Assembly (NCBI RefSeq): GCF_054482595.1
Contig: NZ_CM137008.1
Length of the DNA: 64,000 bases
Strand: one strand, 5' to 3'
The notes beneath the pieces are model-generated. The model saw only the letters and a list, made by a program, of their open reading frames with translations, was not told the origin of the DNA and ran no database searches. A program made the translations under genes and the position numbers. Shown in pieces: positions 9,350 to 64,000 of the stretch. Within the stretch, counting starts at the first letter, position 1. Each line of letters opens with the position of its first letter.

Positions 9350-9388
9350 ATAAAAAAACCTGCTGGTGAGGCAGGTTCTTTTATTTAC
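9350..9388. terminator. Bidirectional intrinsic-terminator-like hairpin, unit A; candidate 3' end of an antisense sRNA
   Basis: aaaaaaa-cctgc-tggtgag-gcagg-ttcttttattt: GC stem flanked by an A-run on one side and a T-run on the other. Confidence 0.5.
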
Positions 9389-9672
9389 TATTTTCAGGCC
9401 TAACACCACAGCCTGTGCAACATCGTGTTCCAACGAACGAATTATAACCACGGCTGGACCCCGTTGCAATTAAGATAATGAGATTTATAATCCAGACCGT
9501 TGGGACGTTGCGCCGGATCGAACCTATTTCAAGTCCTGGCTACCGGACGGGTGGTGCTTCAGGTGGTGCCCTGAGCCGGAGTGCAACATCGTGGTCCAAC
9601 ATACGTAAACCAGTATTGACAGGCAGTGTAAGGGTAAGGTGCTGGTGTTGCGCTCCTTAATAAGGAGAGCGG

Positions 9673-9762
9673 ATGGACTCGCTGACACAAAAGTTAACCG
9701 TGCTCATTGCTGTACTGGAGCTATTAGTAGCTCTGTTACGGTTGATTGATTTGTTGAAGTAA
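9673..9762 (+). CDS. zorP: Small hydrophobic 29-aa protein MDSLTQKLTVLIAVLELLVALLRLIDLLK; candidate type I toxin (ZorO/ZorP-like)
   Basis: ATG 9673 preceded by AGGAG (9662-9669) that lies in an inverted repeat (ctcctta/taaggag) able to sequester the RBS; single predicted TM helix; followed by a hairpin. Symbol recalled from the E. coli O157 zor-orz locus; which copy is O and which is P is uncertain. Confidence 0.55.
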   Translation: MDSLTQKLTVLIAVLELLVALLRLIDLLK

Positions 9763-9783
9763 CGGGCAAATTGAAACGCATCT

Positions 9784-9810
9784 AAGGGGGAAAACCGCTT
9801 CCCCCTTTAA
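9784..9810 (+). terminator. Hairpin downstream of small toxin ORF copy 1
   Basis: aaggggg / ccccctt stem with a 10-nt loop and a short T-run. Confidence 0.4.
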
Positions 9811-9959
9811 TAAAATGATTACTGTTTTTATTAATTCATCATATAACTCATTTTTATTTATAAATTCATCGATTTTATATTCAACGCACCATTTGACCGG
9901 GATGTGAATATTTATGGTGGGCTATTGGCAAAAAATATCTGGAAAGTAGATCGCAGAAA

Positions 9960-9998
9960 ATAAAAAAACCTGCTGGTGAGGCAGGTTCTTTTATTTAC
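9960..9998. terminator. Bidirectional intrinsic-terminator-like hairpin, unit B
   Basis: Same sequence as 9350-9388. Confidence 0.5.
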
Positions 9999-10280
9999 TA
10001 CAGTGACGCTAACTTGCTGATTGTGCAACATTTCGTACCAACGAATAAATTATAACCATATCCACACTCCATTGCAATTCAGTGAGTGAGATTTATAATC
10101 CTGCCCGTTGGGAGGTTGTGCCGGATCGGACCAATTTTAAGTCCTGGCTGCCGGACGGGTGGTGCCGCAGGCGGTGCCCTGATCCGGAGAGCAACGTTTC
10201 GTACCAACATACGTAAACCAGTATCGACAGGCAGTGTAAGGGTAAGGTGCTGGTGTTGCGCTCCTTAATAAGGAGAGCGG

Positions 10281-10370
10281 ATGGACACGCTGACACAAAA
10301 GTTAACCGTGCTCATTGCCGTACTGGAGTTATTAGTGGCTCTGTTACGGTTGATTGATTTGTTGAAGTAA
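10281..10370 (+). CDS. zorO: Small hydrophobic 29-aa protein MDTLTQKLTVLIAVLELLVALLRLIDLLK; candidate type I toxin (ZorO-like)
   Basis: Second copy, differs by one residue (S3T); same RBS-sequestering architecture. Confidence 0.55.
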   Translation: MDTLTQKLTVLIAVLELLVALLRLIDLLK

Positions 10371-33104: not shown

Positions 33105-33240
33105 TCATCGCAACCAAACGACTCGGGGTGCCCTTCTTTGTGAAGGCTGAGAAATACCCGTATCACCTGATCTGGATAATGCCAGCGTAGGGAAGTCACG
33201 GACCACCAGGTCATTGCTTCTTCACGTTATGGCAGGAGCA
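33105..33240 (+). ncRNA. TPP riboswitch (THI element) in the thiM leader
   Basis: Contains ctcggggtgcccttctttgtgaaggctgagaaatacccgtatcacctgatctggataatgccagcgtagggaa, matching the recalled thiM THI-box aptamer; the platform reaches the SD ggcaggagc. Confidence 0.85.
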
Positions 33241-61200: not shown

Positions 61201-61388
61201 GCACCTGGGTAGAGCGTGACCACCTGAATGGTCGGATAGTCCACTTCCGGCAGCGCCGAAACGGGCAGGGCGCGATAACCGATAATCCCGGCGAGTAAGA
61301 TCGCCACCATCAGCAGCGTGGTGGCCACAGGACGCATAATAAACAGGCGCGACGGGCCGCCTGTGCTGCTCGGGGGTAACACCTGCAT
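58266..61388 (-). CDS. mdtB: RND multidrug efflux permease MdtB (1040 aa)
   Basis: AcrB-family paralogue of MdtC; start overlaps the mdtA stop by 1 nt. Confidence 0.95.
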
Positions 61389-62635
61389 CAGGAGCGTGCT
61401 CCTTTTTTCGCGTATTCGCGGCTGGTGGCTTTCTCTTCCGGAGTAGTGGCGCTCTGGGCTTCCACCACTTCCACTTTCGCCCCTTCGGTCAGGCGATCAA
61501 TGCCGTCTGTCACCACGCGATCGCCCGCAGAAATACCTGCACGGATCACCACTTTCTGACTGTCCTGAATGCCCGGCGTCACCAGATGTTTGCTGACCTT
61601 GTTTTCGCTATTCAGCACCCAGACAAAATGGCCTTCATTGCCCATTTGCAGGGCGGCTGTTGGGATCACTACGGCGTTTTGTTCGGTGTCGACTAACATG
61701 CGCGCGTTAACAAACTGATTGGGAAACAGCGCATCATCATGATTATTAAAGCGTGCTTTCACTTTAATCGTACCGGTAGTGGCATCGATTTGGTTATCTA
61801 GACTTAACAGCGTGCCTTCACTTAATTTCTTCGAGTTGGTGCGATCCCAGGCTTCTACCACCAGCGGTTTTCCGGCTTTCTGCGCCTGCACTACGGTAGC
61901 GATATCGCTTTCCGGCAGGGTAAAGACTAAATCGATAGGATGCGTCTGGGTGATCACCACGATCCCGGTGGTATCACCACTGGAGATTTGGTTACCAACA
62001 TCAACCTGCTTGAGACCAACGCGACCATCGACTGGTGCGGTAATCCGGCTCCAGTCGAGTTGCAGCTGCGCGCTGGCAACGCTTGCTTCATCAGCCTTAA
62101 TGGTGCCTTCGGTTTCACTGACCAGCGCCTGTTGGGCATCCAGCTCCTGGCGGGAAACGAGATTGGTTTTTGCCAGTTGTTGATAACGCGCCAGGTCACG
62201 GCGGGCGTTGGCAAGCGTGGCTTTATCTTTTGCCAGTTGGCCCTGGGCTTGTGCTAATGCAACTTTGAACTGGCTGGGGTCAATTTCTGCCAGTAAATCG
62301 CCTGCTTTGACCTGCTGGCCTTCCTGGAAATGTAACGCTATCAGTTGGCCGTCCACGCGGCTGCGCACCGTAACGGTATTAGCGGCGGTAATGGTGCCAA
62401 GCCCGGTGAGGTAACGCGGAACTGCCTGTTCTACGGCGGTCGCCGCCTGAACCGGGGCTAATGGGCCGGAACGCATACCACGTCGACCACCCGCTGGCGA
62501 TTGCTGCGCTTGTTTCGTCGCCCCTGGGGCTGCACTCCGGGAGTCATTGCGGCCTTGCCAGAACCAGAATGCGGCGATGGCGGCGATAACCACCACGATT
62601 ACGATTACCCAACGGGATTTATAACTACCTTTCAT
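61388..62635 (-). CDS. mdtA: RND membrane-fusion (periplasmic adaptor) protein MdtA (415 aa)
   Basis: ORF trimmed to [19 protein letters not shown] (ATG at 62633-62635); HlyD-like adaptor. Confidence 0.9.
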
Positions 62636-62683
62636 CGTTAAGAGTTTCTCTTCCTGAAACGTTTCGCGGAATGATACTAGTGT

Positions 62684-62714
62684 AGCCAGCCAATAAGGGA
62701 GAAAAATGGAGGAA
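62684..62714 (-). promoter_or_regulatory. Candidate BaeR box upstream of mdtA
   Basis: Minus strand reads ttcctccatttttctcccttattggctggc, close to the recalled BaeR consensus TTTTTCTCCATDATTGGC. Confidence 0.55.
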
Positions 62715-62854
62715 TTATGAAACACTGTCTGGAATCGTCTGAATGACGGGCACATTTGCGAGCACGCATCCAGTAATAACACATGAAACTATTTTATCTA
62801 CGCGTTAGCGATAGACTGCTTGCATGGCGAAAGGAGGTAAGCCGACGATTTCAG

Positions 62855-63000
62855 CGGGACGCTGAAACGGGAAAGCCCCTCCCGAGGAAGGGGCCATAAA
62901 TAAGGAAAGGGTCATGATGAAGTGGATCATCATCGTGGTGCTCTTAGTCATAAGCTTCCCGGCTTACTAAGACTACCAGGGCGGGGGAAACCCCGCTCTA
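62855..63000 (-). ncRNA. Candidate Sib antisense antitoxin sRNA, copy 1 (boundaries approximate)
   Basis: Inferred from the ibs/sib architecture, in which the antisense sRNA fully overlaps the ibs ORF; hairpin elements at both ends of the unit. Confidence 0.4.
62914..62970 (+). CDS. Ibs-family hydrophobic toxin peptide (18 aa, MMKWIIIVVLLVISFPAY)
   Basis: ATGATG start, wholly hydrophobic peptide ending in AY, RBS aggaaaggg; location between mdtA and yegL matches the recalled K-12 ibsA/ibsB-sibA/sibB locus. Confidence 0.65.
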   Translation: MMKWIIIVVLLVISFPAY

Positions 63001-63179
63001 CCCTCACTCCTGAAAGTATGCCTTCACGATAAGATTGTCAATCCGCAGGCTTTGCAGTCTGCGATCCTGCCAGCAAATATTCTTTGCGAGTCGTTACGCA
63101 ATAATCACAGAGGAAACTATTTTGTTCACGCGTTAGCGATAGACTGTATTCAGGGCGAAAGGAGGTAAGCCGACGATTT

Positions 63180-63330
63180 CAGCGGGATGCTGAAACGGGA
63201 AAGCCCCTCCCGGAGAAGAGGGCTTTTAATAAGGAAAGGGTTATGATGAAGCACGTCATCATACTGGTGATACTCTTAGTGATTAGCTTCCAGGCTTACT
63301 AAGAACACCAGGGGGAGGGGGAAACCTCTC
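63180..63330 (-). ncRNA. Candidate Sib antisense antitoxin sRNA, copy 2 (boundaries approximate)
   Basis: As copy 1; minus-strand hairpin gccctcttctccgggaggggc followed by a T-rich run just beyond the ibs start. Confidence 0.4.
63243..63302 (+). CDS. ibsA: Ibs-family hydrophobic toxin peptide (19 aa, MMKHVIILVILLVISFQAY)
   Basis: Near-identical to recalled IbsA (MMKHVIILVILLVISFPAY); A versus B assignment uncertain. Confidence 0.65.
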   Translation: MMKHVIILVILLVISFQAY

Positions 63331-63522
63331 CCTAACCCTCACTCCTGAAATTATGTCACTCCGCCCTTAGTGTCAATCGACGGCTCTCCGTTCTTGCGAG
63401 GCGAATAGCAAAATTTTCTGCGCCGCCGGGCCTAATTCTGAAAGTTTCTTCGTTTGCTCTTATTTCATTATTGCAGTCGGTATGATACCGGACCTCGATA
63501 ATTCTCTAAGAAAGGATTTCTT

Positions 63523-64000
63523 ATGAGCGAACAAATCACGTTTGCCACCAGCGATTTTGCCAGTAACCCGGAACCACGTTGCCCCTGCATTTTGCTGCTG
63601 GATGTTTCTGGTTCTATGAACGGTAGACCTATTAATGAACTTAACGCCGGATTGGTTACCTTTCGTGATGAACTGCTTGCTGATCCGCTGGCTTTAAAAA
63701 GAGTGGAACTCGGCATTGTGACGTTCGGCCCGGTGCATGTGGAACAACCCTTTACCAGCGCCGCTAATTTTTTTCCGCCCATCCTGTTTGCCCAGGGCGA
63801 TACACCAATGGGTGCGGCCATTACCAAAGCCCTGGATATGGTAGAGGAGCGGAAACGTGAGTATCGTGCAAATGGTATTTCGTATTATCGCCCGTGGATT
63901 TTCCTGATTACCGATGGTGCACCAACCGATGAGTGGCAGGCTGCAGCCAACAAAGTGTTTCGGGGGGAAGAAGATAAAAGGTTTGCTTTCTTTTCCATCG
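63523..64000 (+). CDS. yegL: vWA-domain protein YegL, N-terminal 159 codons; continues beyond the window
   Basis: Frame open from the ATG at 63523 to the window end; MIDAS-type motif LLLDVSGSM and ITDGAPTD; absent from the ORF track because no stop falls inside the window. Confidence 0.8.

Follow-up and report, generated by a model that had tools for sequence, protein, structure and literature searches.

Two ibs/sib modules between mdtA and yegL

The region between mdtA and yegL in the DNA analysed here (a stretch of 64 kb, referred to as the window) is almost certainly the chromosomal ibsB/sibB-ibsA/sibA locus of E. coli, which consists of two tandem type I toxin-antitoxin modules, the first unit being a W4/I5 variant that appears to differ mainly at the RNA level. 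The original prediction had placed two ibs/sib type I units at this position, and it was borne out by two matches to the Rfam family SIB_RNA, by collinearity with K-12 and by the Ibs annotation in RefSeq. Sequence and translation confirmed two ORFs on the + strand of the gap with start codons 329 bp apart, in line with the earlier proposal of two hydrophobic peptides in repeat units of about 330 bp.

61388-62635, - strand: mdtA (context), 415 aa, starting at the annotated ATG at 62635
62914-62970, + strand: ORF 1, ibsB-type toxin, 18 aa (MMKWIIIVVLLVISFPAY); begins ATGATGAAGTGGATC, ends TAA; coding DNA ATGATGAAGTGGATCATCATCGTGGTGCTCTTAGTCATAAGCTTCCCGGCTTACTAA
63243-63302, + strand: ORF 2, ibsA toxin, 19 aa (MMKHVIILVILLVISFQAY); begins ATGATGAAGCACGTC, ends TAA
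63523-64000, + strand: yegL, 5' part (context), starting at 63523

The encoded peptides of 18-19 residues start with MM(K/R) and are highly hydrophobic, and both ORFs lie wholly within the spans of the Sib RNAs on the opposite strand. The Shine-Dalgarno sequence AAGGAAAGGG is located 4 nt upstream of the ATG in each of them. The repeat units align over approximately 265 bp (roughly 62785-63047 versus 63114-63382) and are separated by a non-homologous spacer of about 65-70 bp; mean column identity over all 338 columns of the two-unit alignment is 86%. The list of open reading frames of the window has a longer mdtA of 464 aa, which begins at a GTG at 62782 next to the first repeat unit and takes in the BaeR box.

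A whole-window Rfam scan yielded matches to SIB_RNA (RF00113) over ORF 1 (63041-62899, - strand; 140.1 bits, E 6.7e-29) and over ORF 2 (63376-63228, - strand; 149.5 bits, E 3.3e-31). Both are full-length to the model and, with a gathering score of 56, far above chance. The first 36 positions of the model lie ahead of the RNA start and span the conserved promoter; its end falls about 30 nt short of the Sib 3' end.

Of 5,426 complete E. coli genomes, 5,419 contain an 891-bp stretch covering the locus (62640-63530); identity is 100% with E. coli AR_0369 and 98.7% with K-12 derivatives. For the AR_0369 counterpart (NZ_CP027140.1), RefSeq has WP_012767741.1 (type I toxin-antitoxin system Ibs family toxin) over ORF 1 and WP_010723109.1 (IbsA) over ORF 2, flanked by mdtA and yegL. 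The locus is thus already known, as its exact sequence, peptide and arrangement are present in RefSeq.

In MG1655 the order is sibA, ibsA, sibB, ibsB, adjoining mdtA and yegL, and the window is collinear with it; position, order and orientation of ibsB/sibB (b4668/b4437) and ibsA/sibA (b4667/b4436) are the same. The alignment to K-12 ibsA/ibsB and sibA/sibB, which had been suggested as a check, is gap-free and contains 12 substitutions over the 891 bp. Five of these are located at 63124, 63147, 63174 and 63188 (ibsA upstream region and 5' UTR) and at 63206 (SibA terminator stem). Apart from 63206, neither the ibsA ORF nor the remainder of SibA differs from K-12, and the ibsA ORF and its peptide (WP_010723109.1) are identical to K-12 IbsA. 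IbsB is labelled only 'putative toxic peptide' in the MG1655 annotation. The K-12 ibs/sib genes of the mdtA-yegL region were reportedly treated by Fozo et al. in 2008.

SibB and SibA antisense RNAs

The ends of the two putative antitoxin RNAs were transferred from MG1655 via the gap-free alignment, while their promoters were read from the sequence and the loops of SibB were placed by means of the K-12 alignment and predicted folds, together with a comparison of the loops of 22 units.

63041-63013, - strand: SibB promoter; -35 TTGACA (63041-63036), 17-nt spacer, -10 TACTTT (63018-63013)
63005 to 62870, - strand: SibB antitoxin RNA, 136 nt; ends from MG1655 sibB 2153646-2153781
62956-62961, - strand: SibB P5 loop CGGGAA (Sib +45..+50), antisense to codons F15-P16; one K-12 difference, at 62961
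62921-62926, - strand: SibB P6 loop UCCACU (Sib +80..+85), antisense to codons 3-5; from the K-12 alignment and the folds of both alleles
63376-63348, - strand: SibA promoter; -35 TTGACA (63376-63371), 17-nt spacer, -10 TAATTT (63353-63348)
63340 to 63197, - strand: SibA antitoxin RNA, 144 nt; ends from MG1655 sibA 2153311-2153454

Judged by the K-12 annotation, the start site of SibB would be 63005. Each Sib (about 140 nt) is perfectly complementary to the entire ibs ORF, the ribosome-binding site and part of the 5' UTR. Both -35 hexamers equal the consensus, and both -10 hexamers are weak. A generic promoter scan recovered neither Sib promoter because the -10 hexamers match the consensus at only three of six positions. 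The generic promoter/terminator scan returned one promoter-like match (62743-62714, - strand) and one terminator-like match, both at chance level.

Compared with shuffled controls, the folds of SibB and SibA had z-scores of -4.4 and -3.7, respectively. The following elements were seen in the predicted fold: (i) a closing stem, P1; (ii) the P5 hairpin, the loop of which is antisense to codons 15-16; (iii) P6, a 7-bp AUGAUGA/UCAUCAU hairpin with its loop antisense to codons 3-5; (iv) J1/7, a single-stranded stretch of 11 nt that covers the Shine-Dalgarno site; (v) a G+C-rich terminator hairpin at Sib +111..+132. Sib lengths (136 and 144 nt, by homology), promoters and fold are the same in K-12 MG1655.

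Published mechanism and its transfer to the locus

In the account given in PMC2943612, each of five ibs genes of K-12 encodes a hydrophobic toxin of 18-19 residues and is faced by an antisense Sib RNA of about 140 nt. Over-production of Ibs is lethal and Sib represses Ibs, as that source states in citing Fozo et al. 2008. SibC recognises ibsC via two independent domains, TRD1 (the P5 loop, within the ORF) and TRD2 (J1/7, over the translation start), which fall in paralogue-variable regions and determine cognate specificity (PMC2943612). Translation is blocked once Sib has paired with ibs, and RNase III probably processes the resulting duplex (PMC4147584). IbsC depolarises the membrane (PMC8309996).

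The ibsC/sibC pair (Han et al. 2010, PMC2943612) has the same architecture as the units of the window, with an sRNA antisense to the whole ORF and the translation start region. SibC and the Sibs of the window share the P1 stem, the P5 loop, the P6 hairpin over an ATGATG...CATCAT inverted repeat, J1/7 and the terminator. However, ibsC/sibC is a separate paralogue with its own locus, and TRD1 and TRD2 have been mapped only for SibC and SibD, so the corresponding positions in SibB and SibA are assigned by homology. By position, the P5 loop of SibB would correspond to the TRD1 core of SibC.

By analogy with K-12, Sib would be produced constitutively. It would first touch its cognate ibs mRNA via exposed single-stranded elements, which in SibC are the P5 loop (TRD1) and J1/7 (TRD2); the duplex would then spread, leading to a block of translation and RNase III-dependent decay. 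Any Ibs that is made would enter the inner membrane and depolarise it. For the Sib ends, the ibs start site and the expression of Sib, the assignment relies on homology to K-12 or to ibsC/ibsD, and toxicity of the Ibs peptides of the window and its relief by the cognate Sib are presumed to be as reported for K-12 Ibs.

The W4/I5 allele of the first unit

The original prediction described the first copy as a divergent variant with W4 that is shorter by one residue. W4 is real, and the peptide is indeed shorter than IbsA. However, 18 residues is the canonical length of this peptide, since K-12 IbsB (MMKLLIIVVLLVISFPAY) also has 18 aa, and the variant is a common allele. Only two substitutions, L4W and L5I, separate the first peptide (RefSeq WP_012767741.1) from K-12 IbsB, and they result from a change of four adjacent bases, CTAC to TGGA, at 62923-62926. 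A synonymous change from CCC to CCG at 62961 lies in the P5 loop.

The TGGA (W4/I5) allele was detected in 2,372 of 5,426 complete E. coli genomes (about 44%), including O157:H7, ST131 and clone D i2, and the K-12 allele in 4,548 of the 5,426. Counts were obtained with a 58-mer centred on the four bases, such that every 28-nt megablast seed must contain a variant base; the two counts overlap because many strains have both alleles as separate units. A pattern scan with ATGATGAAGNNNNTCATCATCGTGGT, covering one genome per species, returned seven loci. It placed the W4/I5 unit also in Escherichia whittamii, and other B-type units in E. albertii and further Escherichia. Two of the loci, in an Acholeplasmataceae MAG (L015) and a Chloroflexi MAG (L018), were discarded as chance matches within unrelated coding sequence. 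Given its frequency in E. coli and its presence in E. whittamii, the W4/I5 allele is old and common.

Array size and unit composition across strains

Strains differ in the size of the mdtA-yegL array, which comprises one to four units and can lose single ones.

MB7671: ibsA only
K-12: LL + ibsA
Window and A30: WI + ibsA
O157:H7: IL + WI + ibsA
ST131: IL + WI + LL + ibsA

Variation in Ibs copy number between strains has been described, an example being the seven Ibs genes of O157:H7 Sakai (PMC2887945). In E. coli 2014C-3599 (L009:888-938) a premature stop cuts ibsA to 16 aa (MMKHVIILVILLVISF*), and the RefSeq label is still Ibs family toxin. In E. whittamii (L016:13595-13880) a single unit is present, with a W4/I5 ORF and a B-type upstream part. 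Its downstream flank is closer to unit A and the yegL side than to unit B, and the unit looks like a B/A hybrid that may have been left by unequal recombination.

The W4/I5 unit is the second unit in the three-unit array of O157:H7 and the four-unit array of ST131, where peptide, P5 loop (CGGGAA) and P6 loop (UCCACU) are identical to those of the window; in the two-unit array of the window, by contrast, it is the mdtA-proximal unit. Derivation of the first unit from K-12 ibsB by point mutation was considered and rejected, as the same combination of P5 and P6 loops is also seen in O157:H7, ST131, clone D i2, A30 and E. whittamii. The J1/7 segment of the window unit is K-12-like (UUUAUGG), whereas O157 and ST131 have UUUAAGG. 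This K-12-like J1/7 beside P5 and P6 loops of the O157/ST131 type suggests that the W4/I5 unit of the window may be a mosaic produced by unequal crossing-over or gene conversion.

Variation in the antisense loops

All five differences between the window and K-12 within SibB are situated in two hairpin loops, four in P6 (GUAGCU in K-12, UCCACU in the window) and one in P5 (GGGGAA in K-12, CGGGAA in the window). Seventeen Sib positions varied across 22 B-type units, nine of them within the 23 nt that make up the P5 loop, the P6 loop and J1/7. This enrichment had a hypergeometric P of 2.5e-4 when calculated per site and of 0.045 with adjacent changes merged as single events, the sample of 22 units from 13 genomes being small and phylogenetically non-independent. 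Units of one array nearly always differ in their P5/P6 loop combination, with the exception of an apparently recent duplicate in 2014C-3599. Throughout the 22 B-type units, the W4/I5 peptide is linked to P5 CGGGAA and P6 UCCACU.

The location of the variation would fit the model of Han et al., in which variable loops confer specificity of a Sib for its own ibs mRNA. In B-type units the peptide varies at residues 4, 5 and 15, precisely those whose codons face the P6 and P5 loops, and the synonymous codon for P16, in the P5 loop, varies as well (CCG, CCC, CCA). These patterns suggest that the peptide changes may largely be by-products of variation at the RNA level. The W4/I5 unit would then be mainly a cis-encoded pair with a variant specificity at the RNA level, not a changed toxin; by construction, such a pair remains self-complementary. 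The contact made by the P6 loop of SibC was described as 'non-productive' by itself (Han et al., PMC2943612), which leaves the role of the P6 loop, the one with the 4-nt change, as a discriminator unproven.

Distance to the mdtA promoter

A BaeR-box-like site upstream of mdtA lies outside the toxin-antitoxin modules.

62706-62689, - strand: BaeR-box-like site TTTTTCTCCCTTATTGGC of the mdtA promoter, with one mismatch to TTTTTCTCCATDATTGGC

It differs by one base from TTTTTCTCCATDATTGGC, which we take to be the BaeR box consensus, and it is the sole match in the 64 kb window, with 0.04 expected by chance. The distance of about 200 bp between the ibs ORF and the candidate BaeR box given in the original prediction agrees with the 208 bp measured to the first ibs ATG. 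The further proposal that antisense transcription could disturb neighbouring promoters, here that of mdtA, is speculation. By homology with K-12, 164 bp lie between the end of SibB and the BaeR box, and the arrangement is found likewise in K-12. A literature search for sibB together with mdtA returned no paper linking the two.

Alternative explanations

Selection on W4/I5 at the protein level, for a toxin whose membrane activity or target has changed, would make the change in the RNA loop the by-product. The change is non-synonymous, it places a bulky Trp in the N-terminal part of the helix, and the allele is old and frequent. Moreover, position 5 of IbsC is the sole N-terminal residue (V5) reported as important for toxicity, according to the summary of Mok et al. 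in PMC8309996. The same summary has the other N-terminal residues of IbsC as dispensable for toxicity, and I5 is a conservative, hydrophobic replacement. The exact coincidence of peptide positions 4, 5 and 15 with the P6 and P5 loops also speaks against selection on the protein, as does the variation of the synonymous P16 codon, which can only be RNA-level or neutral. Protein-level selection is therefore unlikely, and the W4/I5 unit is better read as mainly an RNA-level variant.

Decay of the units into relics of 'QUAD' repeats that have no present function could account for the range of one to four copies among strains and the loss of single units, for the truncated ibsA of one strain (2014C-3599, L009) and for the tolerance of a SibA deletion in K-12 (PMC2943612). 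Yet ORFs, Shine-Dalgarno sites, consensus -35 boxes and RNA folds are intact in both units, ibsA equals that of K-12, and the locus is retained in 5,419 of 5,426 genomes. As work on K-12 also reports abundant Sib RNAs and toxic Ibs peptides (PMC2943612, PMC4147584, PMC8309996), this explanation is hardly credible. Only slightly less improbable is a modulation of BaeR-dependent mdtABCD by Sib/ibs transcription through read-through, collision or occlusion. The elements are close (SibB 3' end at 62870, BaeR box at 62706-62689), SibB is co-directional with mdtA, and the tail CUUUCC of the SibB terminator is a poor U-tract, so that some read-through is conceivable. Against this, K-12 homology places the end of SibB at 62870, in a strong 9-bp G+C hairpin that leaves 164 bp to the BaeR box, and transcription of ibsB points away from mdtA. 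Furthermore, the mdtA-proximal stretch equals that of K-12 but for one base at 62784 and holds nothing particular to the window. The preferred reading of the region thus remains that of two tandem type I modules, the first of them a W4/I5 variant mainly at the RNA level.

Other RNAs and toxin-antitoxin genes in the window

A second tandem type I toxin-antitoxin locus is present at 9352-10370. The Rfam scan also located a small RNA and a riboswitch.

9352-9427 and 9962-10035, - strand: OrzO-P antitoxin RNA matches, 99.9 and 88.8 bits
9673-9762: ZorO/ZorP-like ORF, 29 aa (MDSLTQKLTVLIAVLELLVALLRLIDLLK)
10281-10370: ZorO/ZorP-like ORF, 29 aa (MDTLTQK...)
33114-33210, + strand: TPP riboswitch, 71.2 bits
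49454-49539, - strand: CyaR sRNA, 100.7 bits

The yehI-yehL locus (OrzO-P/Zor) is absent from K-12 MG1655 (PMC2887945), and the window therefore does not come from K-12, despite 98.7% identity at ibs/sib. The positions of CyaR and of the TPP riboswitch are consistent with the K-12 map of the chromosomal region.

Implications

The locus, a textbook type I toxin-antitoxin pair, is of little consequence except for getting the annotation right. Two corrections are useful: the W4 copy is a common allele and no oddity, and the sequence gives no support for cross-talk with the mdtABCD efflux promoter.

A more tentative idea, which we regard as possible but rather doubtful, is that the mdtA-yegL array represents a natural collection of Sib/ibs specificities orthogonal to one another, with W4/I5 as one ancient class and P6 as a true discriminator. 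If so, each unit of an array of one to four units would carry its own P5/P6 loop combination, and the W4/I5 class (P5 CGGGAA, P6 UCCACU) would be ancient and shared with E. whittamii, with unequal crossing-over shuffling the classes among lineages. The P6 loop of B-type units would be a true discriminator, unlike that of SibC, and the polymorphism at residues 4, 5 and 15 would be a by-product of selection on RNA recognition. The concentration of natural variation in the loops is a mildly interesting by-product of the analysis, as it extends the published idea of paralogue specificity to population data.
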